Source: Geminicoccaceae bacterium | Lineage (GTDB): Bacteria > Pseudomonadota > Alphaproteobacteria > Geminicoccales > Geminicoccaceae | Assembly: GCA_023512415.1 (NCBI GenBank) | Contig: JAILZQ010000001.1 | Location: forward strand, 20,008-84,007 | DNA length: 64,000 nt | Reading direction: 5' to 3' | Part shown: piece by piece, positions 5,037-37,915 of the stretch | Position numbering within the stretch: the first letter of the stretch is position 1 | How the letters are laid out: every line of letters begins with the position of its first letter | Translations under genes and position numbers: made by a program | The notes under the pieces: generated by a model | Told to the model about the DNA's origin: nothing | Databases searched by the model: none | What the model saw: only the letters and a program-made list of their open reading frames with translations

Positions 5037-6046
5037 GCGGGACGACGATCGGCACCGAGCGGCGGCGACATTGGCCGTCGCTCGCGGCACGGGCGGAGCG
5101 GCTCGCCCGCGAGCTCGTCGCCGATGCGGCACCGTTGCGGCTCGCGGTTCAGCGAACGGCCAACGGGGCGACGCTCGTCGACGCGGGGATCGCCGTCTCG
5201 GGTAGCCTCGAGGCCGGCCGGCGGATCGCCGAGCTCTGCATGGGGGGTGTGGGCTGGGTCGCGTTCGCGACCGAGACCCGTTTCCCGGGTGTCCCGTTCC
5301 GCATCGAGGCCCGCTCGGCCGATCCGGTGCTCGCCTGCCTCACGAGCCAATATGCCGGCTGGAGCCTCGCCCACGGCGAGGGCGAGAGGGCGTGGCGGGC
5401 GATGGCCTCCGGTCCGGGCCGGGCGCGGGCGGCCAAGGAAGCCCTCTTCACCGAGCTCGACTTCCGTGACCTCGAGGCCGAAAGCGCTTGGTTCGTGCTC
5501 GAGACCGACCGCGCACCACCCGACGCCTTGATCGAGAAGGTCGCGGCCGACTGTGCCCTCCCCCCTTCCGCCCTCGGCTTCGTCCTCACGCCCACGACCA
5601 GCCTCGCCGGGACGGTCCAGATCGTCGCCCGCGTCCTCGAGGTGGCGCTCCACAAAGCGCACGCGCTCGGTTTTCCGCTCGAGCGGATCGTCGACGGGCT
5701 CGGCTCCGCCCCCCTCCCCCCGCCCGCTCCGGACTTCCTCGCGGCCATGGGCCGGACCAACGACGCCGTGCTCTTCGGGGGCGAGGTCCAGCTCTTCGTG
5801 AGCGGGCCCGAAGAGGAGGCCGCCCGGCTCGCCGAAGCGCTGCCGAGCTCGGCTTCGCGCGACTACGGTCGTCCCTTCGCCGAATTGTTCGCCGCCGCCG
5901 GCCACGATTTCTACAAGATCGACCCGATGCTCTTCAGCCCGGCGCGAGTGACCGTCACGGCCCTCGCGACGGGCCGGAGCTTCACCGCCGGCCGGCTCGC
6001 ACCGGACCTCCTCGCCCGATCCTTCGGGCTCCGCGCGGAGGTGTGA
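5033..6046 (+). CDS. mch: Methenyl-tetrahydromethanopterin cyclohydrolase
   Basis: 337 aa with full-length resemblance to Mch (GATLVDAGI...GSLEAGRRIAELCMGG...LTSQYAGWSL...TPTTSLAGTVQIVARVLEVALHKA). ATGA overlap with the preceding gene. Confidence 0.9.
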   Translation: MSGTTIGTERRRHWPSLAARAERLARELVADAAPLRLAVQRTANGATLVDAGIAVSGSLEAGRRIAELCMGGVGWVAFATETRFPGVPFRIEARSADPVLACLTSQYAGWSLAHGEGERAWRAMASGPGRARAAKEALFTELDFRDLEAESAWFVLETDRAPPDALIEKVAADCALPPSALGFVLTPTTSLAGTVQIVARVLEVALHKAHALGFPLERIVDGLGSAPLPPPAPDFLAAMGRTNDAVLFGGEVQLFVSGPEEEAARLAEALPSSASRDYGRPFAELFAAAGHDFYKIDPMLFSPARVTVTALATGRSFTAGRLAPDLLARSFGLRAEV

Positions 6047-6951
6047 CGCGCCCGGTGGCCGGCGCCACGAGCCGTCCCGAGCTCCTCGTCCTGGGTGCCG
6101 GCGGCTGGCATTGGCAACGGCTCGCCCGGGCCGCGGAACGGCTCCGACTGCCGCTGCGCCGGCTCGGCTTCGCGGCCCTCCGCTTCGACGGAACCGCCCG
6201 CTTCGGGCTTCGGCTCGGCGGAGGCGAGGAGCTACCCGGTGCCGTGCTCGTTCGTTTCGTCCCCGGCGGCAGCTTCGAGCAGGTGACCCGCCGGCTCGGC
6301 CTCCTGCACGCCCTCCAAACGCTCGGGGTACCGGTGATCAATTCCGCCCGCGCGATCGAACGCTGCGTCGACAAATCCGCGACGAGCTTTCTCTTGCGAC
6401 ACGCCGGCTTGCCGACACCACCCGCTTGGACCGTGGAGCGGCTCGACGAGGCCCGGGCGATCGTCGAGGCGGAGGCCGCGGCGGGCTTCGCGCTCGTCTC
6501 GAAGCCGCTGTTCGGCGCCCAGGGCAAGGGCCTGCGCCGGCTGCGCGATCCGGCCGATCTCCCGAGCGAGGAAGAGAGCGCGGGGGTCTGGTATCTGCAG
6601 CGCTACGTGCCGCCCGAGGGTGGGGATCGGGACTATCGGGTACTCGTGATCGACGGTGAGCCGGTGGCGGCGATGGCCCGCGAAGGGACCGGCTGGATCA
6701 CCAATGTCCACCAGGGAGGGCGGCCGGTCCCGGTACCGGCGGGTGGGAGGCTCGGCGCGCTCGCGGTCGCGGCCGCCCGGGCGGTGGGCGCCTTCTACGC
6801 CGGGGTCGACCTCCTCGAAGAACGCGGCACGGGCCGGCTCTTCCTCCTCGAGGTCAACAGCCAGCCGGCCTGGCAAGGGCTCCAGACGGTCACCCGCTTC
6901 GACATCGCCGAGGCCCTGCTCGCGGCGATCGATCGGAAGATCCGAGGGTGA
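6043..6951 (+). CDS. RimK-type ATP-grasp ligase (H4MPT:alpha-L-glutamate ligase-like, orf5/MptN-like)
   Basis: GTG at 6043 overlaps the mch stop. RimK motifs present: VPVINSARAIERCVDKSATSFLL...VSKPLFGAQGKG...WITNVHQGG...GVDLLE...LLEVNSQPAW. Confidence 0.7.
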   Translation: MTRPVAGATSRPELLVLGAGGWHWQRLARAAERLRLPLRRLGFAALRFDGTARFGLRLGGGEELPGAVLVRFVPGGSFEQVTRRLGLLHALQTLGVPVINSARAIERCVDKSATSFLLRHAGLPTPPAWTVERLDEARAIVEAEAAAGFALVSKPLFGAQGKGLRRLRDPADLPSEEESAGVWYLQRYVPPEGGDRDYRVLVIDGEPVAAMAREGTGWITNVHQGGRPVPVPAGGRLGALAVAAARAVGAFYAGVDLLEERGTGRLFLLEVNSQPAWQGLQTVTRFDIAEALLAAIDRKIRG

Positions 6952-9518: not shown

Positions 9519-10584
9519 GCTCTCTCTCCCCGACACGGGTGGAACCGGACCCCTCCTCGGTCTGGACCTGGGTGGTGCGCATCTCAAGGCGGCTTTACTC
9601 GTCGAAGACGCGCCCGTGGCGATCCGCGAGGTGCCCTGCCGGCTCTGGGAAGGTCTCGATCGGCTGGACGCCGCCTTCGGCGAAGCCCTGGCCGCCTGGC
9701 CGGAACCCGGGGCCGTGGCGCTCACCATGACCGGCGAGCTCGTCGACCTGTTCCCCGACCGGCGGACCGGCGTCCTCCACCTGCTCGACGCCGTGGCGGC
9801 ACGGTTCCCGGGCCGGCCGCTCGCGGTCTGGAGCACGGACGGCTTCCTCGCCCCCGAAGCCGCCGCGACCTCCCCCCTGGCGGTGGCGTCCGCCAATTGG
9901 CAGGCGACCGCCGAGCTGCTCGCCCGGCGCCTCCCCTTCGGGATCCTCGTCGACATCGGCAGCACGACGACCGACCTCGTGCCCTTCGCCGGGGGCCGGG
10001 TACGGGCCCGCGGCCGCGACGATGCCGAGCGGCTGGCCGAAGGCGAGCTCGTCTATCGAGGGCTCGTCCGAACGCCTTTGATGGCGCTCGCCGACCGGGT
10101 GCCGTTCCGCGGCCGGCTCGTGGGCGTGGCGGCCGAACATTTCGCCACCACGGCCGACGTCTTTCGCCTGCTCGGCCGGCTCGACGAGGCGTTCGACCAG
10201 CATCCCGCGGCCGACGGCGGAGCCAAGACGGCCGAGGGGAGTGCCCGGCGGCTGTTGCGCATGGTCGGCACCGATCTCGGCCCGGCCTCGTTCCGGGAGG
10301 CTCGGGCCCTGGCCGCCCTCTTCGCCGAGGCGCAGCTCCGGCAGATCCACGACGGCCTCGCCCTCCTCCTCTCGCGTGCAGCGATCCCCGCCGAGGCCCC
10401 CCTGGTCGCAGCCGGCTGCGGCGCTTTCCTGGTTCCCGAACTCGCTCGGCGGCTCGACCGGCCGGTGCGGGATTTCGCTACGGTGCTGAGCCTCGAGGGC
10501 GAGCTCGCGCGCTGGGCTCGGGTCGCAGCTCCGGCCCTCGCCGTGGCCCTGCTCGCCCGCGAAGCTCGAACTCAAGCGGCCTGA
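9505..10584 (+). CDS. Hydantoinase/oxoprolinase-like 'H4MPT-linked C1 transfer pathway' protein
   Basis: 359 aa. LLGLDLGGAHLKAA and VDIGSTTTDLVPF are ASKHA/hydantoinase-A-like motifs. The start is uncertain because the annotated start overlaps the divergent neighbour by 14 nt. Confidence 0.65.
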   Translation: MKDGTLSLPDTGGTGPLLGLDLGGAHLKAALLVEDAPVAIREVPCRLWEGLDRLDAAFGEALAAWPEPGAVALTMTGELVDLFPDRRTGVLHLLDAVAARFPGRPLAVWSTDGFLAPEAAATSPLAVASANWQATAELLARRLPFGILVDIGSTTTDLVPFAGGRVRARGRDDAERLAEGELVYRGLVRTPLMALADRVPFRGRLVGVAAEHFATTADVFRLLGRLDEAFDQHPAADGGAKTAEGSARRLLRMVGTDLGPASFREARALAALFAEAQLRQIHDGLALLLSRAAIPAEAPLVAAGCGAFLVPELARRLDRPVRDFATVLSLEGELARWARVAAPALAVALLAREARTQAA

Positions 10585-11315
10585 AGCGATCGCCCGGGTT
10601 CGGTGCGCGCCGTCTCCAACGTGATGCGGACGCGCCGGAACGCCTCGGGGTCGAGGCGATCTCGGCGCTCGCCGCCACAGAGGGCACCGCGGAAGCCCAG
10701 ATAGTCGGCGCCGAGCCGCACCGAAGGTGCGATGTCGGCGAGGCCGAGCGAACCCGCGAGGCCACAGAGGAGCCCGATTTCCCGTGCCGCTGCCACGAAC
10801 CGGACGAGTCGGTCATCGTCGAGACAGCTGCGGAGACCGCCGGCACGCTTGTCGGCCGTATCGAGCATCACGCCCAGAAGGCCGGCCCGAGCGAAGGGTG
10901 CGAGGTCGGCGAGATCGGGGTCACGATCGGCCATGAGCACGGCCACGAGCCGCACCCCTCGAGCCGCCAACGGCGCGAGCCCGTCGAGGACGTGGGCCCG
11001 CCCCGAATCGGCGAAGAACCCCACCTTGACGACGTCGACGCCGCTCGCCGCCACTCGCTCGGCGGCCGCGCGCAGGAGCTGGAGGTCCATCGGCAGATCA
11101 CCGGTGGTCGCCGAGAGCGGCACGCGACCGCCGAAGCGGGCGACCGCGGCCGACAGATGCTCGGGCTGCCAGGCGCCGAGGGCTCCTGCGCGGGGATCTT
11201 TGAGGTCGAGCACCTCGGCACCGAGCTCGAGGGCCGTCTCCGCCTCCTCGAGGTCGGCCACGCTCGCGAGCAGCGCCGGGCGCCGGGCGGGCAGCGGAAG
11301 CGGGGAAGGACGCAT
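10572..11315 (-). CDS. mfnB: (5-formylfuran-3-yl)methyl phosphate synthase (DUF556; methanofuran biosynthesis)
   Basis: 247 aa. LLASVADLEEAETALELGAEVLDLKDPRAGALGA...PLSATTGDLP...GVDVVKVGFF matches my memory of MfnB/DUF556. Confidence 0.75.
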   Translation of the reverse strand: MRPSPLPLPARRPALLASVADLEEAETALELGAEVLDLKDPRAGALGAWQPEHLSAAVARFGGRVPLSATTGDLPMDLQLLRAAAERVAASGVDVVKVGFFADSGRAHVLDGLAPLAARGVRLVAVLMADRDPDLADLAPFARAGLLGVMLDTADKRAGGLRSCLDDDRLVRFVAAAREIGLLCGLAGSLGLADIAPSVRLGADYLGFRGALCGGERRDRLDPEAFRRVRITLETARTEPGRSLQAA

Positions 11316-25582: not shown

Positions 25583-26808
25583 GTGATCGCCAAGGTCGAG
25601 CCGGGCTCGAGCCGTGCCGTGCTCGGCCTCGGTCGGGTCGGAACGACGACTGCCGAACAGGCCGCGGTCGCCGGATACCGGCCGGACCGGAGGATCGACT
25701 TCGATCCGCACAAGCTGGTGGCGTTCGCCGCCGGCCGCTCGCCGGTCGCCGAGCCCGGTCTCGACGCGCTCCTCGAGTCACCAGCGCGATCCGGCCGCCT
25801 CGCCGTGAGCCCGACGATCGAGCCGATCCTCGACGGACTCGAGGTGGTCTTGGTCTGCCTCGGAACATCGGCGGGCCCCGACGGCCGGCTCGACCTCACG
25901 GCCCTGCTCGACCTGTTGCGCCAGCTCGCTCGCAGGTTGCGGCGGCGCTTTCCCACACGCGCGCTGCTCTGGATCGTGGAGCGCAGCACGATCGTGCCCA
26001 AAACGATGGATCGGCTGGTCGTCCCCACGCTCCCCGCTGAAGCGCGTGCCGAGCCCGGCTCGCGCTTCGACGTTGTCTACAATCCCGAGTTCCTCCGTGA
26101 AGGAAGCGCTCTTGAGGACCTCGCTCGCCGGCACGTATCCTCCTCGGCAAGCGCTTTCCACGAGCGAGTTGCCGTCTCCTCGGGATCTACGACGCGGTCC
26201 AGGAAACGCTCCTCGACGTCTCGTTCCGTCTCAACGAGATCGTCAAGCTGCTCGACAATTGATTCTGCGCCCTCAAGGTGGCGTTCGCCAACGCGCTGGG
26301 CTGGATCGCGCTCTCCGCGGGCGTCGACCCCGGCGGCCTCGCCGAACTCATGCTGATGGACCGCACGCTCAACCGCTCCTCGGCCTATCTGCGGCCGGTA
26401 GGACCCTATGGCGGGCTCCGCTTCGGGAAGGACCTGCAGGAAACCGTGGCCTTCGCGCAGGACGCCGGCCTCACGCTGCCGGCGCTCGCTGCCGTTCCGC
26501 GGAGCAACGATCGGCGCGTCGAATTCCTGCTCTTGCGGATCCGCACGGCCGTCGTGCCACCGGGGGCCGCTCTCCTAGTCGGCGCCTCCGTCAAGGATGG
26601 CACGGACGATCTGCGCGGGCGCCCGAGTCTGGCGTTCCCCGAGCACCTCCTCCTGGCAGGTTACGAGCTTCCGGTGGTCGACCCGGCCCTCGACGGAGCC
26701 GCGCGCCGCGCTCGCCTCGTGGTGCTCGCCAAGATGCTCCCGGGGCTCGTCGCCCGGCTACCGACGGGCCTTCCGGTGGTCGACATGCCGCGGCTCCCGC
26801 CGCCGTGA
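25583..26808 (+). pseudogene. Decayed GDP-mannose/UDP-glucose 6-dehydrogenase-family gene (frameshift, in-frame TGA, lost catalytic Cys)
   Basis: Frame 2 gives LGLGRVG...SPVAEPGLDALL...NPEFLREGSALEDLARR. The homology then continues in frame 1 from about 26128 (PARILLG...LLGIYDAV...EIVKLLDN). It is interrupted by TGA at 26260-26262 and resumes as FCALKVAFANALGWIA... The GGSC(F/L)PKD active-site motif reads GGLRFGKD (CGC at 26419-26421). Confidence 0.7.
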
Positions 26809-26938
26809 GCGTGATCACCCCGCACGTGCATCACCAACACATGGTGTCCGGCCGGTGAGACCAGACGAAAAGGCCCTGGGCCACATCGCGCCGCCCGCCG
26901 GAACCCACCGGCGCCGACCCTCCGTCCGTGCCACCTTG

Positions 26939-28267
26939 ATGCCTGCTGCAGCACTCCCGCATCCCGTCTTCCGGACGCTGAAACGTCTGTTCGGCGCGCT
27001 CTTCTCTTTCGAAGCCCTGTTCGCCCTCTTTCTCTACTCGAACAACATCAAGCCCTTTTTGCCATCCCTACCCGTCGACGAGACCATTCTCTTCGGCGCA
27101 GCCAGTCTCCCCTTCGCTGGGTTCCTTCTTTGGCGACGTGGCCTCCCAGCGCGCGGTCTGCCCGCGACGGCCATCGGCCTTCTCCTCTTCGGTTGGCTCG
27201 CCTTGTCCATGCTCTGGAGCCCCGCCCAATTCCTAGCCGCTCGCGCCGTCGCGTACAATCTCACGTTCAATCTCTATTGCTTGCTCGCGGGCGCTCTGGT
27301 CCTCGCCGCCGATCGTCTCCGTGTCCGTCGCTTCCTCGTCTTCGTCCTCCTAGTCGCTCTTTTCCTCTCGGTTCACGGGTTCTGGATCTATCTGCAGTAC
27401 GGCACCTTTCGTTTCTATAGTGGTTTCGAAGGAATTCAAGCTTATCTCCTCTGGACCTTTCCTGTCTCCACCGCGAGTGCGATCCCCCTCACCCTCGCCC
27501 TCACCGCTCCTCTCGGTACGCTGCGTCAGATCGTGAGCCTGGCTCTCGCCCTCTTCTTCGGCGCATTCCTCCTCGTTGCCAGTGCTCGTGGGCCCATGCT
27601 CGCCTATCTTTTCTCTTTCTTTTTTCCACTCCTGATACACCCGCCCCGGGTCGGCCACGGCTCCCTGCAGATTCCAGCATTTTACGTTTTTCTCCTTTTT
27701 CTCACCAGCTCCCTCCTCTTGCTTCTCCTCGGTTTCCTCGCCTCCGGCGATGTCCCACCGACAGTCGAACGCTTCATTGATCTGCTTGGCTACATCAGAG
27801 CCGGCGGGGTCGCCGTCCGCTTCGACCGACTCAGTTACTGGTACCACGCCATCCAATTTTGGTCCCGTTCACCCCTCTTCGGTATCGGGATCGGCGGCTT
27901 CTCGTATCTCTACGCCTTCGGGCGCGAAATCCCCGGCACACATCCACACAACGTCGTTCTCGAGCTCCTCGCCGAAACGGGTTTGGTCGGTGCCTTTCTT
28001 TTCTTTACCTTGCTTCGCGTCAGTCTTCGCGATTTTTCGATCCGTCGCCTCCACCACGATCGTCTCTACCTTTGTATCTTCCTGATGTTTGTGGGCCTTC
28101 TCGTCGTCCGCGCGATGACCTCTACCGACCTGGCGAATCAGTGGGAATTATTTCTTACAATCGGCCTTCTCACCTTACCGCCCGCTCCGTCAACGGCCCA
28201 CCACGCCGTCCCCTCCCCCTCGCGCCCAAGTTCGGATCGCCGGACCCGGAAAAAAGGACAAGGATAA
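26939..28267 (+). CDS. O-antigen ligase / Wzy-type polymerase family membrane protein
   Basis: 442 aa from ATG 26939, about 10-12 TM helices. ASARGPMLAY and GIGIGGFSYLY...THPHNVVLELLAETGLVG are typical of the Wzy_C/O-antigen ligase domain. G+C is markedly lower than in the flanks. Confidence 0.75.
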   Translation: MPAAALPHPVFRTLKRLFGALFSFEALFALFLYSNNIKPFLPSLPVDETILFGAASLPFAGFLLWRRGLPARGLPATAIGLLLFGWLALSMLWSPAQFLAARAVAYNLTFNLYCLLAGALVLAADRLRVRRFLVFVLLVALFLSVHGFWIYLQYGTFRFYSGFEGIQAYLLWTFPVSTASAIPLTLALTAPLGTLRQIVSLALALFFGAFLLVASARGPMLAYLFSFFFPLLIHPPRVGHGSLQIPAFYVFLLFLTSSLLLLLLGFLASGDVPPTVERFIDLLGYIRAGGVAVRFDRLSYWYHAIQFWSRSPLFGIGIGGFSYLYAFGREIPGTHPHNVVLELLAETGLVGAFLFFTLLRVSLRDFSIRRLHHDRLYLCIFLMFVGLLVVRAMTSTDLANQWELFLTIGLLTLPPAPSTAHHAVPSPSRPSSDRRTRKKGQG

Positions 28268-28580
28268 AATCCGTGGCATTTCCGCGCGCCGGCCTTGGCA
28301 GACTCGCCTGCACTCGGACGAGGGAATAACCATAACGAGAACTGCGATCGCTTGTTCCCGAGCCCCCGACCTCCCTCGGAGGGAGGTGACAACGCCTGCC
28401 GCTGCTCGACCCACGCACAGGAGCCACACAGGTACCACGCGGAGAGACGTGATCATCCATAACGGATCCCGTGACAACACCAAAATGCGCAGCGTAGGCA
28501 ACGCCACCTCGCCCTGCAGTCGAAGCCCCATCGAATCTCCGCTCGGGTCGGCGAGGTCGAACCGTCCGATCCCGAAAGAA

Positions 28581-29213
28581 TCACCGCGCAACGCGTTGAT
28601 CCCCGGATTCGCCCGAAAAAGTGACGTTTTCCGTGATGCGGACGCGGATGAATCCACCGCCGTGCGCGGTAACGAAACGTGCGGCCGAGACGATGGCAAC
28701 AGTATCGTTAGGCCCTGCCGCATCGGGGTATAGATTGTAAATATGTAAGACTCGTTCCATCCGAAACGTAAGGTTGTAGATCCCGTCGCGGGCATGCCTG
28801 TCTTGTACAAGATGCGGAACCGTCACCCCGCCTGACAGCGGAATCGGCGTGCAAACTGGGATGGTCGCTAGCACGACCTTTCTCCCTCGACTCCAATAGT
28901 GGAAATCAACACGAGGTACGACCGCACGACATTGCGGCCTTGAGATAGCGCAGACGAGGCCGGCAGAGATCGCGCATCCGACGAAGCGACTGTCACCGGT
29001 ACGGATGGCGCGTCCCGCTGCCCAGGCGAGGAGGATGAGGAACGTATGCGTGAAGGCTTCCGTGGCGAGTTGACGTGGAAAGACGAGTGACAGGGGAAGG
29101 AACAAGTGAACAATAGCGACCGCCAGAGCCAGGGTCGGCCAGAGATCGAGCTTTCCTCCGATCCCGACGAGGACGAGCGTGGTGCGTATCGCACAGGTCG
29201 ATTGCAAACCCAC
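28581..29213 (-). CDS. Hypothetical ORF in the low-G+C patch, possibly a disrupted gene
   Basis: 210-aa ORF with a hydrophobic N-terminal half. It overlaps ORF 28190-28810 in another frame, where the text continues plausibly (FRANPGINALRGDSFGIG...), suggesting a frameshifted remnant. No family recognised. Confidence 0.2.
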   Translation of the reverse strand: MGLQSTCAIRTTLVLVGIGGKLDLWPTLALAVAIVHLFLPLSLVFPRQLATEAFTHTFLILLAWAAGRAIRTGDSRFVGCAISAGLVCAISRPQCRAVVPRVDFHYWSRGRKVVLATIPVCTPIPLSGGVTVPHLVQDRHARDGIYNLTFRMERVLHIYNLYPDAAGPNDTVAIVSAARFVTAHGGGFIRVRITENVTFSGESGDQRVAR

Positions 29214-29749
29214 GACGAGCGATTGTCAGCCGAATAAGAGTAATGCACCATGGATCGTATAATCACCGGAGGCCCACGTCGCGCCATGCGGTCCGGAGTA
29301 CCCGAGTCTGCCGCTCCGTCGAGGCGTCAGTGAAAGACCGGGTGGAGGACAATTTCAGGACGGTTTGCGAGGCGCTCGCCTTCGAAAGCGACGGCGATCT
29401 TTTCCTGGGGGATTATGTCTCGGTCTGTGTTTATGAAGGCGGCCGGTGACTGGACGTTGCGGAGCACGAGCGTCCCGTGCGCCAGGGCGAAGAGTACGAG
29501 CATTGCGGCGAGTGCTCGAAGATCGAAGCGGCGAGAATGAGATGCGGTGCTTCCATGGTCCTGTGGTGGGCGATCGGCGGAAGTTTGTGAGAGTCCGGAC
29601 ACTGATGCCTTCCGTGGGTCCGTGGAATCGACATTCGTGCCAAAGCTGATGGTTTCATTTTGTCGAGGGGCTTGTGATCCGGGACGCGTATACCGAGGGG
29701 AGTCCGTCGGAGCATAGCGAAGAGGAAAACGGGGTGTTGCGGAAGATCC

Positions 29750-32023
29750 TCAGTTCAAGTAATATTTTTGTGATTTCTTGTAATATCCGGTCTTGTCCGC
29801 ATAGCCGTAGCGGGCATGTTTGTCGAGGTCGACCCGGGTCAGCACCACTCCTTTGAGAGGGGCACCGAGCTCCTGGAGAGCCGCGAGCTCGTCCTGGACG
29901 AGCGAGGCCGGAGTCTTGTTCCATTGCACCGCATAGACGACCTGGTCGACCAACGGTGCCAGGATCCGAGCGTCGGTGACACTCGTGACCGGCGCCGTGT
30001 CGAGGATCACGAGATCGTAGCCGATCCGGCAGCGGGCCAGGAACTCGCGCATCCGCTCGCTCGCCAGGAGTGCGATCGGGTTGACCGTCTGACCCTTGAC
30101 CGGAAGGAAGTGCAGGCCGGTTTCCTCGTCGACCTGGATCGCCTCCTCGAGCGAGCATTCCTCGCGGAGCACCTCGAGGATGCCGTTCGGCAGCTGCCAG
30201 CCGAGATTGCGATGGACCGAAGGATGCCGGAGATCGAGATCGACGAGCAGGACCTTCTTGCCCGAGCGGGCGGCGAAGGTGCCCAAGGACACGACGAGCG
30301 TGGTCTTGCCTTCCTCGGGTAGGCTCGAGGTGACCAGGACGACACCGCCGCCACCCGGCCGTGCCGGTGTCGCCACGAGGGCGACGAACACCGCACCGAT
30401 CGCCTCCGCGTAGAGGGAGAGCGGCTTCTCGAGCAGATAATGGTGGGGTTTGTGACGCCGCCTTCCGGGGATCTCGGGGACCAGGCTCAACATCGGCAGT
30501 CCAGTGAGCCGCTCGACCTCGCGCGCGCTCCTGAGTCCTTTGCCCAGGCTCTCGAGCAGGAAAGCGAGCGCGGAAGAGATCAACAGCGAGCCGGTGAAGC
30601 CGACCAGGAGGTAGACCTTGGGCCCGAACGAGCTGGGCGCGAGCGGCGGTGTGGCCGGGCTCACGATCCGCGCGTCCGGTTCGACCAGTTGGGTCTCCTC
30701 ACGGGTCTCTTTGGAACGCTGCAGCACCGACAAATAGAGCTGACGCGCGGCCTCGGCCTGTCGCTCGAGCTCCTTGAGCTTGACCTCGGCCTGACGATCC
30801 CGGGCGGAGCGGCCCTTGACCCCCGAGAGCTGGCTCTCGAGCGTCGCCACACGCGCCTGGACCACCCGGACGTCGTTCTCAAGCTGGGTGGCGAGCCGAT
30901 CGATCTCGGCCCGCACCTTGGCCTGAAGGTTGGCGCGGTCGCGCTCGAGCTGGACCATCCGCGGATGGCGCGGTCCGAACTGGGTGACGAGCTCCGCTTC
31001 TTGGCGGGCGAGCTCCGCTTCTTGGGCGCGCAGGTTGACGATCACCGGCGAAGCGGCGATGTCGCTGATCGCGTCGAGGCCACGGCCGCTCGCTCGGAGC
31101 TCGCGCACCAAGCGCAGCTTGGCTTGTCGTTCGGCCATCTCGCCGCGCGCCACGATCAATTCACGATTGAGTTCGCTAAGCTCCTGCTCGCCGAGGGTGA
31201 CGCCCTGGGCGTCGAGCAGGCCCTGCTCGGCGCGGAAGTTCGCGACCGCCCGCTCCGCCTTCTCGACCTCCGCACGCAGGCTCTCCAGGCGCTCCTCCAG
31301 AAAGGCGGAAGCCCGACCCGTGGCGCCGAGCTTGCTGCGCCGTTGACCGTCGACGTAGACCCCGGCCAAGTGGTTGGCGATCTGCGCGGCCTTGGCCGGA
31401 TCCTCGGCGCTGACCTCGAGGTTGATCAGGTAGGACACGCCGTCGTTGAGGACCCGCACGCGCTCGGCGAGGGCCGCGGCGACGAGATCCTCGACCGGTC
31501 GGTCCGGGACCTCCGCCTCGCGCGGCCAGGAGGCCGGCTCGGCCGCAACCCCGATCGCCACGAGCCAGTTGCGCGGCACGAGGCTCAATGCCCGCTCGAT
31601 CAGGAACCGTGGCTCGAGTCGCAGCCAGCCCGGCTGCTCCGTCTGCAGGAGCGGGTTGAACTCGGGATCGTGGACGAGCCCGAGCTCTTCGACGGTGCGG
31701 CGGAGATTGGCGTGCGCCGTGATCACCCCCATCTCGGTGGCGACGATCTTTTCGTCGACCGGCAGCCGGCCGACCACTTTCTCGATGTTCAACACACGAT
31801 CCTCGCGCGGATCGACGACGATCAGCGCGCTCGCCGTGTAGAGCGGTACGCGCTGCTTGCCGTACACCCAACCGATCGTCGCACCGACCAGGCTGATCAG
31901 CAGGATCAACCACTTGCGTCGCCAGAGAACGGCAAAGAAGGAGACCACGTCCACCGAGGCATTGTCGAGCGTCGATGGATGGGTCGACGGAACGTCGCCC
32001 TTGACTGTGGTCACGTCTCGCAT
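29750..32023 (-). CDS. wzc: Polysaccharide co-polymerase / tyrosine autokinase (Wzc/ExoP/GumC-type, PCP-2a)
   Basis: About 757 aa from ATG 32023 (track ORF runs to 32089). Wzz-like N-terminus with a TM helix, long coiled-coil region, second TM helix. P-loop VVLVTSSLPEEGKTTL...LLVDLDLRHPS and a C-terminal Tyr cluster YGYADKTGYYKKSQKYY. Confidence 0.85.
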   Translation of the reverse strand: MRDVTTVKGDVPSTHPSTLDNASVDVVSFFAVLWRRKWLILLISLVGATIGWVYGKQRVPLYTASALIVVDPREDRVLNIEKVVGRLPVDEKIVATEMGVITAHANLRRTVEELGLVHDPEFNPLLQTEQPGWLRLEPRFLIERALSLVPRNWLVAIGVAAEPASWPREAEVPDRPVEDLVAAALAERVRVLNDGVSYLINLEVSAEDPAKAAQIANHLAGVYVDGQRRSKLGATGRASAFLEERLESLRAEVEKAERAVANFRAEQGLLDAQGVTLGEQELSELNRELIVARGEMAERQAKLRLVRELRASGRGLDAISDIAASPVIVNLRAQEAELARQEAELVTQFGPRHPRMVQLERDRANLQAKVRAEIDRLATQLENDVRVVQARVATLESQLSGVKGRSARDRQAEVKLKELERQAEAARQLYLSVLQRSKETREETQLVEPDARIVSPATPPLAPSSFGPKVYLLVGFTGSLLISSALAFLLESLGKGLRSAREVERLTGLPMLSLVPEIPGRRRHKPHHYLLEKPLSLYAEAIGAVFVALVATPARPGGGGVVLVTSSLPEEGKTTLVVSLGTFAARSGKKVLLVDLDLRHPSVHRNLGWQLPNGILEVLREECSLEEAIQVDEETGLHFLPVKGQTVNPIALLASERMREFLARCRIGYDLVILDTAPVTSVTDARILAPLVDQVVYAVQWNKTPASLVQDELAALQELGAPLKGVVLTRVDLDKHARYGYADKTGYYKKSQKYYLN

Positions 32024-32416
32024 CGATTGCGACTCGCTGGGCTCTGCCTCGGCGCGAAACCCTATATGCACCTTCCCGGCCCGGAGCAAGGGAGCCCGGT
32101 CGACAAGCGACTCGGACCTTACCTCGGTGCGTCGGACGGTTCCGCCCGGGGCCGGGATGCGCTTCGGTCCCCCGGTCGGCCTTCACCCGACCGGCCGTCG
32201 CGAAAGTCGCCGAACCCGGCGGGCGACTTCCGACGCGATCGCAGCCGGCTGCCCGTCGCATTCGGGAGAGCTCCGGACCGACACGCTCGGCCCACCGGGC
32301 GAGCTCCGCCCACCGTGCGCGTCTGCCGGATGCCGACCTCGGAGGCTCTCACCCGAAACGACGGTTCGGCCCCGTTCGTGGCCAGCTCGTTCACCCCGCC
32401 CCATCGAACCACGTCC

Positions 32417-33928
32417 TCAGCGGCTCGCCCGAGGGGCAGGATCGATGGAGGCCGCAGCGGACGGACCGTCCTCACGACGCCGCCAGACGCGCCATCCGAG
32501 CTGGTCGTACACCAACTGCCAGCCCGGACGCCCGCGCTCCCAGAGATCGGGGAAGGTTCGGTTCGAGCGGTCGCGTTCGGCTCCCGGACGTCGCGGATCG
32601 GGAACCGCGATTTGTCGGACGGTCGGCCGGCGCGCGATCAGCTGCTCGAGAAACAGCGGATCGGGCGGGAGAACGAGGCGATCGGCACGGCCGAGCGCCG
32701 CCACCACCGGCATCCCGAGCCGATCGTCGAGGAGTGTGGCCGGACCGTCGGCGAGGAACGCGGCCAGCGCACGCTCACCCGGATGCGGCTCGGGGAGGGG
32801 ACGATGGAGAAGGGCCGTTCGCCACCGGACGATCTCGCCCTCGTCGGAGCGGGCCACCCACACCCACGCGCCCGCCACCGCCACGAACAACAGGCCGAGC
32901 GCGATCGCTCGCCGCGCGCCGGTACGACATTCGGCCAACACCGAGACGACCGGGGCGACGGCGAGGAACAAGAATTGGAGCGGGTGCCCGGAACAGCCGA
33001 GGGCACGCGCCGTGGCGAACCCCGCCACGGGAATCGCGCACGATCCCACGAGCACGCCGGCGAGGCGAAGGGAAGCCCCCGGTCGAAAGAGGCACGACCC
33101 GAGGACGGGCGCACTCACGAGCAAGAGGGCCGATCCCGCCCCGATGGCCCCGAGGAAGCGTTCGCCGTCGGGTCCGAGCCACGATCCGGCTTCGGCGGGG
33201 ACGAGGTCGCAGACTTCGGATCCGAGTGCCTCGAGGGCGGCCGCCCAATCGCCGGTCGAGGCCCAACCGAGCCAGCTCGAAAGCGCGAGCATCCCACCAA
33301 CCGGCACGCCGAGGACGAGCAGAAGCCCGCTCGGTGCTTCGCGGAGCATCTTGGCGGGCACGCTGCCGAGAACGAGGGGCAGGAGTGCGGGCGCACAATA
33401 GACGAAACGCGGATCGATCCACGACCAACAGGCGATCACGAGTGACAAGGATATCGCTCGACGCGCCGTCCTCTCCTCGGCCAATTGCCGTATCGAAGCC
33501 GTCACGACGGCGAACGCCGCGAGGGCCAAGATATCGGGTCCCGTCCGCGACAGAGCCCACAGAGTGAAAGGGTGGACGACGAGGAGAGCGATCGCCCCGA
33601 TCGCCGATCCCGCGTTCCACCCCGTCGACCGCAACCGCTCGTACCCTTTTCCCAAGAGAACGCCTCCGACACCCACCGCGAGTACCGGGAGTGCGGCGAG
33701 CGTCGTCGGTCCGCCGAGCATTTCGAGAAGGGCACCCATCTGGAGCCACGGCTTCGGCTCGACCAGGGCGAGGCCTTCCTGCACGAACCCCGGCACGTCC
33801 CGGGCCATCACCGCCGTTGCCCGTAACGCCACGAGCTGCGGATCGACCCAACCTCCGGCTACGAGCCACGAGCCCGACGCGGCCGTGAAGAGGGCGCCGA
33901 GCGCCGCTGCGGCCGAGCTCCGAATCAC
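32417..33928 (-). CDS. Polytopic membrane protein with C-terminal soluble domain (GT-C-like?), third gene of the synthase operon
   Basis: 503 aa from GTG 33928, which overlaps the GT2 stop (GTGA). At least 10 hydrophobic segments, then a ~130-aa Arg/Pro-rich soluble tail. No specific family recognised. Confidence 0.5.
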   Translation of the reverse strand: MIRSSAAAALGALFTAASGSWLVAGGWVDPQLVALRATAVMARDVPGFVQEGLALVEPKPWLQMGALLEMLGGPTTLAALPVLAVGVGGVLLGKGYERLRSTGWNAGSAIGAIALLVVHPFTLWALSRTGPDILALAAFAVVTASIRQLAEERTARRAISLSLVIACWSWIDPRFVYCAPALLPLVLGSVPAKMLREAPSGLLLVLGVPVGGMLALSSWLGWASTGDWAAALEALGSEVCDLVPAEAGSWLGPDGERFLGAIGAGSALLLVSAPVLGSCLFRPGASLRLAGVLVGSCAIPVAGFATARALGCSGHPLQFLFLAVAPVVSVLAECRTGARRAIALGLLFVAVAGAWVWVARSDEGEIVRWRTALLHRPLPEPHPGERALAAFLADGPATLLDDRLGMPVVAALGRADRLVLPPDPLFLEQLIARRPTVRQIAVPDPRRPGAERDRSNRTFPDLWERGRPGWQLVYDQLGWRVWRRREDGPSAAASIDPAPRASR

Positions 33929-35835
33929 GCGGTCGCTCCGAACTTCGCCGCCGCGATTTCCGCCGCGGTGGTCTTGCTGATCCCGTGGCGGGTCTTCTCC
34001 CAATGGAACGGACATCGCACGAGCTGGATCACCGCCTTCCAACCGGCGATCGACATCAAGATCCAATACAACGGTACGGTCAGCGCCCAGACCGTCAGGT
34101 CGAACCGTTCGCGTTTGACGGGCGCGATCGCCGAAAGATAGATCAGGATCGTGTTACCCAGGATCAACGCGAGGATCGACGGGTACATCAGCCACGGCGG
34201 GAAGATCGTTTCGAACGACGTCGATCCGGTCGTGATCCAGGTGAGGAACGTCACCCACAGAAGGGGATTGATCAGCGCCGCGGCCACGGTTCCTCCCACG
34301 AACAGATGGAACGCCAAAAATCCCTTTGGTCCTACGATCTTGGCGAACCGCACGGGTTTCCGCATGTGGACGAGCCACGTCTGCATGTAACCCTTGAGCC
34401 AGCGGGACCTCTGCCGGATCCAATTCCCGATGTGACAATTCGCTTCTTCGAAGGTGGTCGAGTCGATCACGCCGACCCGATAACCTTTTTGCGCCAGACG
34501 GATGCCGAGATCCGCATCCTCCGTCACGTTGAACGGATCCCAACCGTGCAGTTCGCGCAGGACGGACGTCTTGAAGTGATTCGAGGTACCGCCGAGCGGA
34601 ATCGGCATCCCGAACCTGTCGAGAGACGGAAGCATGAGGTCGAACCAGAGACTGTAATCGAGCGTGAACATCCGCGTCAGCCAGTTTTCCTTGTCATTGT
34701 AAAAATTCAATCGCGCCTGAAGACACACCGTGTTCGAGGGCGATTTACGGAACGAGACGACGGCTTTCTTCAGTTGATCCGGCTCCGGTTTGTCTTCTGC
34801 ATCGTAGATCACGAGATACTCGCCTCGGGCGAGGCGGAGAGCGTAGTTGCACGCTTTCGGTTTGGTGCGAGGATGAGACGGCGGCACGAGAACGATTTCG
34901 AAAATGCCCTCGAGGCCGAGCGCCTTGGCCGCCGCGATGGTCTCGTGGTCGTCGGCTTCGAGGACCAGTTTCACGTCGAGCTTCGCCAGCGGATAATCCA
35001 ATTTGCGGAGTGCGGCGGCGAGGATCGGAAGAACCTCGGGTTCTTTGTACATCGGGACGAGAACCGAATATGTCGGGAGCTCTTCCTCCCGTAGAGCATC
35101 GAGTTCGCCTCGATCCACCGTGGTATCGACGCCGGGCAGGACCGCACCGGCCGTGGCGAGGAACGCTTTGAACGCGACGCTCGCGAGGAACGCCGCGAGC
35201 AGGATGCCGTTGAGGAAGAGGATCGTCTGCAGCGGCGCGACCGCCAGGCCGAGCAGAACGGCGCTCACGACCGCCCAACCGGCGACGAGCTGGGCCGAGG
35301 TGAAGACCGTGCGAGCCGAGCAGTCCGGATCGTGCGCGGCGAGGTCCTCGATCGCGCTGCGCGTGAGCTCGCTCGCGAAACATCGTTGGAAGGTGGCGAG
35401 CAGATCGAACGTGCTCGTCACCGCGACGACAGCCGGGGTCGTCGGGTGCCGAAGGGCCAGGCGGGCAAGCAGGGCTTGCGGCTCGGTCGTCGCCCAAACC
35501 GTCCGACCTCGAATCCTCCGCCAAGGAACCGCTTGCCAGGCGACGTACGCGTCGAGTTCGTTCGGATCGAGGAGATCCGGATCGACCGGAAATCGCCGCA
35601 AGTCGAGAAAGGGCAAACCGAGTTGCCTTGCCAAGATGCGGTAGAGGTCGATCGGACGCAAGAAGCCCAGGGCGACGAGCGCTCGACCCAAGGGAACACG
35701 CCACCGCCGCGCGTAGGCGAGCGCTTCGTCGAGCTCGGACCGTTCGACGAGCCCGGCCTCGAGAAGTTCCGTACCGAGGAGACGGGGAACCGCCTCGTTC
35801 GCCGATCCGCCGGCAGGGATCGAAGCGGCGGACAC
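33925..35835 (-). CDS. Processive family-2 glycosyltransferase (polysaccharide synthase) with N-terminal T2SS-E-N/MshEN-like domain
   Basis: 636 aa. GT2 core: YSVLVPMYKEPEV...VLEADD...VIYDAEDKP...TEDADLG...QRSRWLKG (the QxxRW processivity motif). TM helices lie before and after the core. The N-terminal 80 aa resemble the GSPII_E N-terminal domain. Confidence 0.85.
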   Translation of the reverse strand: MSAASIPAGGSANEAVPRLLGTELLEAGLVERSELDEALAYARRWRVPLGRALVALGFLRPIDLYRILARQLGLPFLDLRRFPVDPDLLDPNELDAYVAWQAVPWRRIRGRTVWATTEPQALLARLALRHPTTPAVVAVTSTFDLLATFQRCFASELTRSAIEDLAAHDPDCSARTVFTSAQLVAGWAVVSAVLLGLAVAPLQTILFLNGILLAAFLASVAFKAFLATAGAVLPGVDTTVDRGELDALREEELPTYSVLVPMYKEPEVLPILAAALRKLDYPLAKLDVKLVLEADDHETIAAAKALGLEGIFEIVLVPPSHPRTKPKACNYALRLARGEYLVIYDAEDKPEPDQLKKAVVSFRKSPSNTVCLQARLNFYNDKENWLTRMFTLDYSLWFDLMLPSLDRFGMPIPLGGTSNHFKTSVLRELHGWDPFNVTEDADLGIRLAQKGYRVGVIDSTTFEEANCHIGNWIRQRSRWLKGYMQTWLVHMRKPVRFAKIVGPKGFLAFHLFVGGTVAAALINPLLWVTFLTWITTGSTSFETIFPPWLMYPSILALILGNTILIYLSAIAPVKRERFDLTVWALTVPLYWILMSIAGWKAVIQLVRCPFHWEKTRHGISKTTAAEIAAAKFGATA

Positions 35836-35836
35836 G

Positions 35837-37915
35837 TCAGGCTCTCCGGCGGAGAACCACGACCAAGCACGCGGTGAGCGCCGCCCAGAAGGCGAGGATC
35901 AGGCCCCACCGCCACGGTGCCAATCGATCGAACCAGGAGATCGCTTCGGGGTATGCGACACGGATCACCGTCTCGCGGGTCGTTCGCAAAGCGATGCGCG
36001 TGCCGGATCGGTCCCCGACGACGAGGTCCTCCCGATCGAGCCGGTCCCCGGGCCAAGATGGTAGCTCGGGTTCGAGCCCGGCGAGCTGGAGACCGGGCTG
36101 CTCGCCGAGACGAACGAGTTGGGCCACGGCGATGTTCGTCCCCGGTGCGATTTCGAGAAGCGGCCCGCTCGCGCGACCGACCAGAGCGACGCGGCCTCGG
36201 TCGAGTCGCAAGGGAGCGACGAGCTCCGGGCGGGCCACCCCACCCACGAGTAGGAACGGTCTTTCCGGTCGCAACGGATCGTCGCCGGCGATCGGGATGA
36301 CACGACCCGGTGTCCCCGGACGGAAGAGGTGGCGACCGATGCCCACGAGGGTCGTGAGCAGGTTCGTCGGACGGTCGAGCCGATCCCGCTCGACCAGGAG
36401 AGGCGTTTCTTCGTCGAGCAGGGCTGCGAGCTCGGCGAACGTGCGAGGGTGCCGCGGAGCCGCGCCGAGGATCAGGTACGAGCTCGCGAGCAATTGGGCC
36501 GGGAGCTGCGTCGGTCGAGAGGTACACGGATCGGCTTCGGCCTGGCGGACGAGCTCGACGCGCAGCTCCGGAGCGAGGCGAACGTCGCGCTCCGGGAGGT
36601 TCAACCGCAAACGGTGCGGTCCGGGACCGTCCGGCAACGGACCCGTGTGCAAGAGCTCTTCGTCGAGCCAAACCGCAACCGAAACCGGCCGTCCGCCGGA
36701 GCCCACAGGGGCCACCACATCCAGAACCACGCCGACCGGAACCCGGCCGGCCGGCAACCGGACGAGGGGTAGACCGAAGCGCCAACCTCCCCGCTCGCCG
36801 ATCCACCGCGTTCGCAGCTCCACCCCGAGCTCCCCGAGCGGCACGGTCTCGACCTCCGGCTCGGCGTGCGATCCCGAGGAGACCAGGTTCGTGTCCGTTC
36901 CGGCCGCGAGCGAGACGAGGCCGGTGCGAACCAACCGATCCAGCGCCGCACCGGCTCGCGGGTGAACGAACAAGACCGATGCTCGCCCCGTTCGAACGAG
37001 AGACAGATCGTTCGTTCCACGCGGAAAAAGGGGCTCTTCACGATCGCCGACCCACGCTCGTTCTTTCATGTGAAAAGCGACGATTTCGGGATCGCCGATC
37101 ACGACGTGGGGTGGTTTCTGCGCGACGGCATGCTTTCCGAACGACCGCCGATCGGCTCCTTCCACCTGGTCGGCAACGGGGAGGAGTCGGCCGAATTCGC
37201 CGGCGACGAGCGGCGGCGAGCCTTCGAGCTCGCGGTACAGGATCTCACGGCCGGACCGGGCGAGCGCGAGACCGACGAGCAGTGCAGTATGGAAAACGTC
37301 CGCTTCACCTCGGCCCGAAGCGACCGCGATTTCTACGGTCCTCGGCAGCGTTTCCCAAAAATTCCGGATCTCGTCGATTCGGCGCGTGTCGACCACGAGT
37401 TCGAGACCACTCCGGGGCAGGATCCGCACGAAGCCCCCGGCCGTCCGATCGTCCACGCAACGATCGTCCGCCAGACTCCCACGCAGTTCGAACTCGACCC
37501 GGGCGAAAGGCTCGCGCAGGTCGCCGGGCTCGAGCGGCAGGACGACCTCGCTTCCCGCCCAGCGCAACAGATCGAGCGCGAGGACACCCCGGTCCTTGAC
37601 CCGAACTTCGAGCACCGCCCGCTGCCACGTCGGCAATTGGACATCGAGGAGAAGGCGAAGGCGACCCGAATCGGGACGAGACGCAGCCAGGGTCGGGAAA
37701 TGCACACTGCGCGTGTCGACGGTCCCTCGCAGCTCGAGCCCCTGCTCGAACCCCAGCCGAGCGAGGTCGAGTTCGACCGTTTCCCGTTCGGCTTTCGCCC
37801 GCAAAGCGGACTGTGCCTGGACGCCGCGATCCCCTCCCACGAGAGAACCGAGCAAGAGCGCGAGCCCGAGCCGCACGAGACCGATCCGAGCGCGCATCGA
37901 TCGTCGAAACGTCAC
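35837..37915 (-). CDS. BcsB-like periplasmic synthase partner (signal peptide, C-terminal TM anchor)
   Basis: 692 aa. Signal peptide MRARIGLVRLGLALLLGSLVGG..VQAQS, a large beta-rich body and a C-terminal WGLILAFWAALTACLVVVL-RRRA anchor. Its stop is 1 nt from the GT2 start. The BcsB assignment rests on topology plus weak sequence impression only. Confidence 0.5.
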   Translation of the reverse strand: MTFRRSMRARIGLVRLGLALLLGSLVGGDRGVQAQSALRAKAERETVELDLARLGFEQGLELRGTVDTRSVHFPTLAASRPDSGRLRLLLDVQLPTWQRAVLEVRVKDRGVLALDLLRWAGSEVVLPLEPGDLREPFARVEFELRGSLADDRCVDDRTAGGFVRILPRSGLELVVDTRRIDEIRNFWETLPRTVEIAVASGRGEADVFHTALLVGLALARSGREILYRELEGSPPLVAGEFGRLLPVADQVEGADRRSFGKHAVAQKPPHVVIGDPEIVAFHMKERAWVGDREEPLFPRGTNDLSLVRTGRASVLFVHPRAGAALDRLVRTGLVSLAAGTDTNLVSSGSHAEPEVETVPLGELGVELRTRWIGERGGWRFGLPLVRLPAGRVPVGVVLDVVAPVGSGGRPVSVAVWLDEELLHTGPLPDGPGPHRLRLNLPERDVRLAPELRVELVRQAEADPCTSRPTQLPAQLLASSYLILGAAPRHPRTFAELAALLDEETPLLVERDRLDRPTNLLTTLVGIGRHLFRPGTPGRVIPIAGDDPLRPERPFLLVGGVARPELVAPLRLDRGRVALVGRASGPLLEIAPGTNIAVAQLVRLGEQPGLQLAGLEPELPSWPGDRLDREDLVVGDRSGTRIALRTTRETVIRVAYPEAISWFDRLAPWRWGLILAFWAALTACLVVVLRRRA

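Follow-up and report, generated by a model that had tools for sequence, protein, structure and literature searches.

The 64-kb window (the whole stretch of DNA that was analyzed) encodes a synthase that is almost certainly a member of the XagB/Sfz2 family, i.e., an inner-membrane processive GT2 polysaccharide synthase with a complete MshEN (GSPII) domain at its cytoplasmic N-terminal end. [quoted passage not shown] The original prediction of a synthase-dependent EPS system that takes its second-messenger input through an MshEN-type module in place of PilZ is supported to this extent. It is reasonably probable that c-di-GMP activates the synthase through this N-terminal domain. The MshEN–GT2 design itself is already known. 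It has been on record since 2016 and is found very widely, which makes the synthase an unremarkable addition to a known family.

The XagB/Sfz2-type synthase gene (33925..35835, reverse strand) is an open reading frame of 636 codons. Its product runs from the MshEN domain through two transmembrane helices to a GT-A domain (approximately residues 254–481) and an interface helix that carries QRSRW; these are followed by three long transmembrane helices, a conserved PFxWEKTxHG loop (609–618), and a short C-terminal helix. The GT2 catalytic domain (residues 254–481; 34393..35076, reverse strand) was delimited with the Pfam models Glyco_tranf_2_3 and Glyco_trans_2_3. The processive GT2 signature of D, DxD, TED, and QxxRW is complete, with DAED at 345–348, TED at 438–440, and QRSRW at 475–479, and these three motifs are invariant across the homolog alignment (A1). 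When the AF2 model of the whole synthase (pLDDT 83, pTM 0.86) was searched with Foldseek, the best matches were BcsA (4P00, E 6.6e-13) and hyaluronan synthases. The original prediction that a C-terminal PilZ domain is missing holds: a Pfam profile search found no PilZ domain in the protein, which ends about 30 residues past the last transmembrane helix.

The synthase gene is part of a three-gene operon, in which the other two genes encode a periplasmic subunit with the BcsB fold and a polytopic membrane protein that is conserved. The gene for the first of these partners, a BcsB-like protein of 692 amino acids and homolog of Sfz1 (35837..37915, reverse strand; identified with Pfam, AF2, and Foldseek), ends one nucleotide upstream of the synthase start. 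The protein has a signal-like N-terminal helix and a C-terminal transmembrane anchor (model helix 661–691), and only its N-terminal part matches Pfam BcsB, at 22.6 bits against a gathering score of 21. Its AF2 model has a pLDDT of 76, and the top 22 Foldseek matches are all BcsB proteins (best E 3.4e-24, TM ~0.5), in agreement with the BcsB-like partner that had been proposed. A profile of the protein found no match among PDB sequences, so the relationship to BcsB was seen there by fold comparison only. The third cistron (32417..34066, reverse strand; placed by tblastn synteny) encodes a polytopic membrane protein of 549 amino acids from a TTG start, with a shorter alternative start possible at 33928. 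No Pfam or NCBIfam family matched it. In the sfz cluster of Mariprofundus, a homolog comes next after the synthase gene, at the Sfz3 position. An Rfam scan of the window found no c-di-GMP riboswitch and no other family.

The MshEN domain consists of two parts. Its MshEN_N subdomain carries the tandem 24-5-24 motif in residues 19–71 (35623..35781, reverse strand; NF053729, 5HTL alignment, and AF2), which read LLGTELLEAGLVERSELDEALAYA-RRWRV-PLGRALVALGFLRPIDLYRILARQ; motif I spans 19–42, the spacer RRWRV 43–47, and motif II 48–71. The sequence and the coordinates given for it in the original prediction map exactly. An alpha/beta MshEN_C subdomain resembling T2SSE_N1 follows in residues 72–157 (35365..35622, reverse strand; Pfam PF05157 and AF2). 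Searches with HMMs place both parts above their cut-offs. The NCBIfam model NF053729 (c-di-GMP_motif) matches residues 20–71 at 41.8 bits, or 44.6 bits with the isolated N-domain (cut-off 38), and the Pfam MshEN model PF05157 matches residues 72–157 at 31.6 bits (gathering score 23.1). With phmmer against the PDB, residues 18–89 align gap-free to residues 8–79 of Vibrio cholerae MshE (5HTL, E 2.4e-9), putting the motif residues 19–71 in register with MshE 9–61; they were also aligned to PilF GSPII domains. The AF2 model predicts four helices in MshEN_N (20–26, 32–45, 49–55, and 61–71; pLDDT ~90) and, in MshEN_C, helices at 91–100, 119–129, and 142–152 with strands at 102–108, 111–116, and 136–139. 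This secondary structure, confident over residues 20–170 (pLDDT ~90), matches the layout of a four-helix bundle with an alpha/beta C-subdomain.

The synthase is rich in Leu and Ala, and a helical segment of this kind could in principle resemble a loose hydrophobic pattern by chance; a single match to the core pattern indeed appeared in ~6% of shuffles of the synthase sequence. The hydrophobic and Gly core pattern is, however, present twice at a distance of 29 residues (24+5), as had been claimed for the tandem, and two matches at the right spacing arose in just 1 of 20,000 shuffles. Three independent profile and sequence searches are also significant, the MshEN_C subdomain lies directly adjacent, and conservation across phyla extends to the domain as a whole. 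On this sequence evidence, a chance resemblance has a negligible probability and is already effectively refuted.

The residues expected to contact c-di-GMP are for the most part in place. All 18 of the hydrophobic and Gly positions that define the core over both motifs (L2, G3, h6, h7, G10, h11, h12, L17, and L21) are kept, as originally proposed, along with 20 of 22 positions of the extended consensus. These include the six guanine-stacking leucines equivalent to MshE L10, L25, L29, L39, L54, and L58, as well as the equivalents of MshE G11, G18, G40, G47, and Q61. The same core is kept in the closest relatives (71–75% identity). Arg is absent from position 1 of both motifs, which hold L19 in motif I and P48 in motif II, and position 24 is Q71 in motif II and Ala (A42) in motif I. 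R9 and Q32, the residues first implicated in MshE, are thus replaced by L19 and A42 in motif I. Of the positions reported as changed in XpsE, which does not bind, the synthase departs at R38 alone.

How much these replacements matter can be judged from work on Thermus PilF. The consensus at position 1 has been widened to (R/K/L)LG (Neissner 2024; PMC11731258). [quoted passage not shown] The two absent arginines are therefore not disqualifying, since Leu at this position is a validated high-affinity variant in PilF GSPII-B. L19 fits the R/K/L set; P48 falls outside the extended consensus and inside the relaxed [RKPN] pattern of Wang et al. The deviations left are the Gln-to-Ala change that ends motif I and the Pro that opens motif II. 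Gln 24 of each MshEN motif hydrogen-bonds to ribose and phosphate, and a Q190E change in PilF GSPII-B lowers affinity by ~83-fold (PMC11731258). The suggestion that the module might be degenerate was right about the Arg and Gln changes; the worry attached to it is weakened by the widened consensus and by the nanomolar affinity of an Arg-less GSPII-B.

A nonbinding domain is a possible reading with appreciable but clearly lesser weight. The MshEN domain would then be a degenerate relic that acts purely structurally or as a platform for protein interactions, e.g., in oligomerization or partner docking, as in XpsE or PilF GSPII-A, and control of the synthase would lie in transcription or in other inputs. 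The replacement of the motif I Gln and of both arginines fits this reading, as does the behavior of PilF GSPII-A. Although close to the consensus, that domain is kept from binding by an N-cap helix and inter-subdomain contacts, so matching the motif does not by itself ensure binding. The family adds to the case, given that many members without the Gly or Leu positions still keep the domain. Of 75 members sampled, some 25 to 40 have clearly eroded motifs (in Bacteroidota, Sphingomonadales, and many Hyphomicrobiales), so an MshEN domain can persist without the canonical site, and some of the architectures listed by Wang et al. 2016 likewise lack a recognizable motif. In the synthase studied here, however, every hydrophobic and Gly position with a >10-fold effect in MshE is retained, Leu at position 1 is a residue that raises affinity in PilF, the NCBIfam motif model scores the protein above the curated cut-off, and the closest relatives have kept the motif core.

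That the domain might recognize another nucleotide messenger, e.g., 3'3'-cGAMP or another cyclic dinucleotide in place of c-di-GMP, is very unlikely. In its favor, MshEN is described as binding cGAMP more weakly, and motif I deviates at both of its ends. Against it, the backbone amides of the conserved LG-x pair are what select for guanine in MshEN, and both motifs of the synthase retain this pair. GGDEF domains are abundant in the genome, and nothing suggests a different ligand.

Proteins of this kind are found across a broad range of bacteria. The synthase is 47–55% identical to XagB and Sfz2 over residues ~20–630, N-domain included. More than 8000 protein clusters have the Pfam MshEN plus GT2 architecture, several of them named "glycosyltransferase XagB," and at least 599 matching stretches from many phyla were found in a collection with one genome per species. 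Among 75 diverse family members, 58 match NF053729, and the motifs form a gradient from canonical (Chloroflexota, Actinomycetota, Zeta- and Gammaproteobacteria, and the synthase here) to eroded (Bacteroidota and Sphingomonadales); Thermomicrobium is an example of a canonical member and Mucilaginibacter of an eroded one, and Rhodobacter sphaeroides has a homolog, Rsph17029_0522. The gene neighborhood also recurs. In tblastn searches, a BcsB-like homolog lies directly upstream of the GT2 gene in ~30 alpha-, gamma-, and zetaproteobacterial loci, and homologs of the third cistron lie immediately downstream of it in many proteobacterial loci. The "MshEN - Glyco_trans_2_3" architecture appears in Supplementary Table 4 of Wang et al. 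2016, where the N-terminal motif of Xanthomonas XagB (XCC0678) was aligned in Supplementary Fig. 3c, and the pairing of BcsB-like and XagB-like genes in iron oxidizers was described in 2015 (Kato; PMC4643136) and 2021 (Koeksoy; bioRxiv 10.1101/2021.03.12.435129). The novelty implied by the original prediction accordingly falls away. In a literature search that took in subscription journals in part, no test of c-di-GMP binding was found for N-terminal MshEN–GT2 proteins, nor one of the polymer that this family makes.

Xanthomonas XagB (XCC0678; "glycosyltransferase XagB" in KEGG), which belongs to the biofilm-polysaccharide operon xagABCD, is 52–53% identical over residues 19–630 (L007 and L021) and has the same domain order, MshEN and then Glyco_trans_2_3, but it lacks the turn Gly that the synthase here has in motif II. 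The accessory genes differ. Xanthomonas XagA (340 aa) and XagC (452 aa) are unlike the 692- and 549-residue partners, no XagD-like GH113 gene adjoins the operon, and BLASTP of the two partners against the XagA and XagC proteins of L007 gave no similarity. An xagABCD-type operon was rejected on this basis, and the accessory genes are of the sfz type, not the xag type.

Another close counterpart is the Sfz1-Sfz2-Sfz3 cluster, a candidate for stalk formation in Fe(II)-oxidizing Zeta- and Betaproteobacteria (PMC4643136; bioRxiv 10.1101/2021.03.12.435129), which has the gene order seen here, with a BcsB-like gene upstream and an Sfz3-like gene downstream of the synthase. All three proteins of the operon match Mariprofundus loci L029 and L031. 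The GT2 of these loci is 47% identical to the synthase, and the partners match at E 1e-35 to 3e-40 (third cistron, 3e-40 in L029 and 6e-39 in L031). The papers on sfz describe Sfz2 with a T2SS-E N-terminal domain and a GT2 domain, and they draw no connection from the former to c-di-GMP binding of the MshEN type. The systems differ in their hosts, iron oxidizers in the case of sfz and a phototrophic Geminicoccaceae-like alphaproteobacterium here, and in the adjoining genes, where a Wzc-like co-polymerase is found instead of an Sfz4-type hydrolase.

E. coli NfrB, an exopolysaccharide synthase activated by c-di-GMP, likewise fuses a processive GT2 (DxD/TED/QxxRW) to MshEN, and its output requires c-di-GMP binding to the MshEN domain (Junkermeier and Hengge 2021, PMC8669469). 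In NfrB, MshEN is C-terminal to the GT, whereas the synthase has the inverted order, and the NfrB partners, the outer-membrane barrel NfrA and YbcH, differ from those in the operon. The two proteins share local similarity between their MshEN regions. An identity with NfrB was rejected given the inverted order and a match to NF008411 of 26.4 bits (cut-off 1170) that involves the MshEN segment only.

With BcsA–BcsB, the operon shares the predicted BcsA fold, a BcsB-fold partner with a C-terminal transmembrane anchor, and presumably the logic of activation by c-di-GMP. The receptor of BcsA is a C-terminal PilZ domain, while here the receptor domain lies at the N-terminus and has another fold. Assignment as BcsA (CelA) was rejected with PilZ missing and with scores of 56.8 bits for TIGR03030 (cut-off 699) and 36 for PRK11498 (cut-off 992). 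The 53-residue motif of MshE (5HTL) and PilF GSPII-B (8PDK etc.) aligns gap-free with the synthase. Leu at position 1 is natural in motif II of PilF GSPII-B and is found in motif I of the synthase, which differs from MshE and PilF in that motif I ends in Ala instead of Gln and motif II begins with Pro. The output domain of MshE and PilF is a T2SS/T4P ATPase and that of the synthase is a glycosyltransferase.

In the proposed mechanism, the four-helix bundle would take up c-di-GMP made by some of the ~17 GGDEF proteins of the genome, with one guanine stacked on L35, L39, and L49 beneath L19 and the second on L20, L64, and L68 beneath P48. This would free the GT domain allosterically, and the exopolysaccharide would then be polymerized, pushed through the synthase's own channel, and guided in the periplasm by the BcsB-like subunit. 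A possible route for the release is the conserved PFxWEKTxHG loop, at the site of the gating loop in cellulose and hyaluronan synthases. The logic would be that of PilZ in BcsA and of the C-terminal MshEN in NfrB. In the 95%-complete assembly, 17 GGDEF matches were found and none to PilZ, and the synthase gave the single MshEN match above the cut-off. Because of this profile, the Arg-less MshEN might conceivably be the principal, high-affinity c-di-GMP receptor of the cell and the synthase the main c-di-GMP output in the lineage, a doubtful proposal.

The finding adds little beyond annotation: a Geminicoccaceae-like phototroph joins the many bacteria with an XagB/Sfz2-type synthase that is probably gated by c-di-GMP. 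The XagB/Sfz2 family is worth biochemical study, given its very wide distribution, its implied part in the biofilms of Xanthomonas, and the role suggested for it in the stalks of iron oxidizers, and the gradient from canonical to eroded motifs offers natural pairs of binders and nonbinders for such work.

The N-terminus of the 636-aa GT2 synthase (ORF 33925–35835, minus strand) was predicted to carry a tandem MshEN motif, and the layout holds at the residue level. Residues 19–71 are those originally reported and correspond exactly to window positions 35623–35781. A pattern made up only of the hydrophobic and Gly positions of MshEN matches at residues 20 and 49, an offset of 29 that gives the 24-5-24 layout with every such position fitting, and this tandem core was found in 1 of 20,000 shuffles of the Leu/Ala-rich protein. 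The NCBIfam model NF053729, titled [quoted passage not shown] matches residues 20–71 at 41.8 bits (curated cut-off 38) and the isolated N-domain at 44.6 bits, while Pfam MshEN (PF05157) matches the subdomain after the motif (residues 72–157) at 31.6 bits against a cut-off of 23.1. In a phmmer search of PDB sequences, residues 18–89 align without gaps to residues 8–79 of Vibrio cholerae MshE (5HTL; E 2.4e-9), and the three GSPII domains of Thermus PilF are also matched. As judged by these three independent sequence searches, the resemblance is one of homology.

The AlphaFold2 model of the synthase, built on 18 homologues (pLDDT 83, pTM 0.86), opens with a four-helix bundle (residues 20–71), an alpha/beta subdomain (91–152), and a linker helix with two transmembrane helices (180–232). 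The GT-A domain comes after these first two transmembrane helices, an interface helix carries QRSRW (475–479), and the C-terminal part comprises three long transmembrane helices and then a short helix. The polypeptide stops some 30 residues past the last membrane helix and has no match to a Pfam PilZ model, in line with the predicted lack of a C-terminal PilZ domain. Foldseek neighbours of the model include BcsA (4P00, E 6.6e-13), hyaluronan synthases, and chitin synthases. The catalytic motifs DAED (345), TED (438), and QRSRW (475) are invariant among homologues, as is PFxWEKTxHG (here PFHWEKTRHG; residues 609–618, window 33982–34011) just past the last transmembrane helix. Gating loops read FxVTxK in cellulose synthases and WGTR in hyaluronan and chitin synthases; by position and composition, PFxWEKTxHG may be their counterpart.

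The partner gene immediately upstream (692 aa, 35837–37915) passes the Pfam BcsB model marginally and over its N-terminal part only. Its AlphaFold2 model (pLDDT 76) has a C-terminal membrane anchor and resembles BcsB from end to end; BcsB accounts for every one of the first 22 Foldseek matches (best E 3.4e-24, TM ~0.5), which bears out the proposed BcsB-like pairing. Directly downstream, in the Sfz3 position, lies a third cistron on the minus strand encoding a 549-aa polytopic membrane protein (32417–34066) that matched no Pfam or NCBIfam family. Its start is ambiguous, either TTG at 34066 (a 142-nt overlap with the synthase gene) or 33928, and alignments of some homologues reach into the overlap. 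By tblastn, about 30 loci of Alpha-, Gamma-, and Zetaproteobacteria have homologues of the 692-aa and 549-aa proteins on the two sides of the synthase, among them those of Mariprofundus ferrooxydans and M. micogutta. Just downstream of the operon is a Wzc-like co-polymerase/tyrosine autokinase gene (29750–32089, minus strand; TIGR01005 E 1.4e-99, under the model's cut-off), bordered by a lower-G+C stretch at about 26000–30000 (0.59–0.64 versus ~0.72 elsewhere). The arrangement suggests a Wzx/Wzy-type polysaccharide locus side by side with the synthase-dependent one. An Rfam scan of the 64-kb window returned no family at gathering score, hence no tRNA genes and no riboswitches, including no c-di-GMP riboswitch near the operon.

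The operon corresponds to the “BcsB-like + XagB-like” cluster of iron oxidisers (Kato et al. 2015, PMC4643136) and to the sfz1–sfz3 genes of Koeksoy et al. 2021 (bioRxiv 10.1101/2021.03.12.435129), proposed for twisted-stalk formation. The sfz authors noted a T2SS-E N-terminal domain in Sfz2 and looked for RxxD and RxxxR motifs, drawing no link to MshEN. Supplementary Table 4 of Wang et al. 2016 lists “MshEN - Glyco_trans_2_3” for Actinobacteria, Firmicutes, and Proteobacteria, with Rhodobacter sphaeroides Rsph17029_0522, and “Glyco_trans_2_3 - MshEN” as NfrB; Supplementary Fig. 3c aligns the XagB-type N-terminus of Xanthomonas XCC0678. The xagABC operon has been predicted to encode a c-di-GMP-binding protein (Roelofs et al. 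2015), and xag expression is up in rpfG (HD-GYP) mutants. Within the catalogued XagB/Sfz2 family the synthase is an ordinary member, with its operon in the sfz-type, BcsB-partnered form. XagB of the Xanthomonas cucurbitae locus is 53% identical to it and matches Pfam MshEN at 45 bits. The Xanthomonas partners XagA and XagC show no homology to the 692-aa and 549-aa proteins; the synthase is therefore paired with different accessory sets across lineages. The 549-aa protein is unrelated to XagC, though Kato 2015 labels the iron-oxidiser gene “XagC-like.” In the X. cucurbitae locus (intervals of note 5903–6925 and 10133–11101), XagA (340 aa) matches no Pfam family, the gene that follows XagC has a GH113 match (PF22612, E 7.9e-32), and an extra GT2 gene lies upstream (4571–5773).

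The predicted c-di-GMP site was mapped through the gap-free phmmer alignment. MshE L10, G11, G18, L25, and L29 correspond to L20, G21, G28, L35, and L39, and MshE L39, G40, G47, L54, L58, and Q61 to L49, G50, G57, L64, L68, and Q71. MshE R9, R38, and Q32 correspond to L19, P48, and A42, so the position-1 Arg is absent from both halves and the Gln from the first, as anticipated. In MshE, affinity drops more than 10-fold on mutation of any one of the conserved hydrophobic residues and at most about 5-fold when Arg9, Asp12, or Gln32 is changed (Wang et al. 2016). PilF GSPII-B, which has Lys and Leu at its two position-1 sites, binds c-di-GMP at 6 nM; its affinity falls when Arg is put back and improves to 2 nM with K167L, which widened the consensus to (R/K/L)LG... 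(Neissner et al. 2024, PMC11731258). L19 is accordingly a validated variant and no defect, and P48 falls outside that consensus and inside Wang's relaxed [RKPN] search pattern. The spacer Trp W45 (in RRWRV; window 35701–35703) is invariant in the 118 closest homologues and present in most Proteobacteria; Chloroflexota and Bacteroidota have Thr, Ser, or other residues there, and the MshE spacer is described as non-conserved.

The main rival, that the domain is retained structurally and does not bind, is possible but rather unlikely. From the alignment, A42 replaces one of the two Gln that form hydrogen bonds with ribose and phosphate, and at the matching PilF site Q190E costs ~83-fold (PMC11731258), although Glu, unlike Ala, introduces a charge. 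PilF GSPII-A comes close to the consensus and still fails to bind, owing to its N-cap helix and subdomain contacts, and binding here is for that reason still a prediction. The non-binder XpsE deviates at G11, I19, L29, R38, G40, L54, L58, and Q61 (MshE numbering), of which only the R38 equivalent is altered in the synthase. Binding by the MshEN domain is predicted with moderate confidence, and the original reading, an EPS synthase with an MshEN-type input, is supported overall. By analogy with NfrB, whose function needs c-di-GMP binding by its own MshEN domain (2021, PMC8669469), and with BcsA-PilZ, the most likely mechanism is probably allosteric: c-di-GMP would dock on the N-terminal domain, and its occupancy would activate polymerisation and secretion. 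In the literature searched, covering some but not all journals, no c-di-GMP-binding test of an N-terminal MshEN–GT2 protein was found.

The draft host assembly (3.58 Mb, 263 contigs, 95% complete) holds 17 GGDEF matches and nothing that matches PilZ at E ≤ 0.001, an absence that a draft does not prove. The synthase gene alone exceeds the NF053729 cut-off, and a weak second match lies on another contig (C217:1849–1992). Signalling by c-di-GMP therefore exists in this host with the synthase as the clearest receptor candidate, and the synthase may be its main recognisable c-di-GMP receptor.

The family is widespread. A word-index search with the synthase scored at least 8000 clusters, each with E ≤ 1e-10. 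Of the best 120, almost all are of the same length and combine Pfam MshEN with GT2 domains, and several carry the JGI name “glycosyltransferase XagB.” The nearest named relatives among the listed clusters are Geminicoccaceae at 75% identity, and close relatives in that family share the “...ARRWRVPLG...Q” form. Scanning a collection with one genome per species gave at least 599 matching stretches; these start at about residue 20 and so include the MshEN domain. Listed matches come from Pseudomonadota (Alpha-, Gamma-, and Zetaproteobacteria), Chloroflexota, Bacteroidota, Cyanobacteriota, Actinomycetota, Acidobacteriota, Synergistota, Bacillota, Gemmatimonadota, Aquificota, Nitrospinota, and Ignavibacteriota, and NF053729 reaches E ≤ 0.01 in 58 of 75 diverse family N-domains. 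Counted over 22 extended-consensus positions, the motif scores 20–21 in Chloroflexota, Actinomycetota, Gemmatimonadota, and Zeta- and Gammaproteobacteria, 20 in the present synthase (L2/G3/L17/L21 kept 8/8), 18–19 in Xanthomonas XagB, 13–16 in Hyphomicrobiales, and 11–13 in Sphingomonadales and Bacteroidota (Mucilaginibacter, Pedobacter), where key Gly or Leu residues are gone. Across the family loci (L001–L080), the motif is canonical in Chloroflexota, Actinomycetota, and Zeta- and Gammaproteobacteria and eroded in Bacteroidota and Sphingomonadales, a gradient suggesting that c-di-GMP control was lost repeatedly within one orthologous synthase family while the domain itself was retained.
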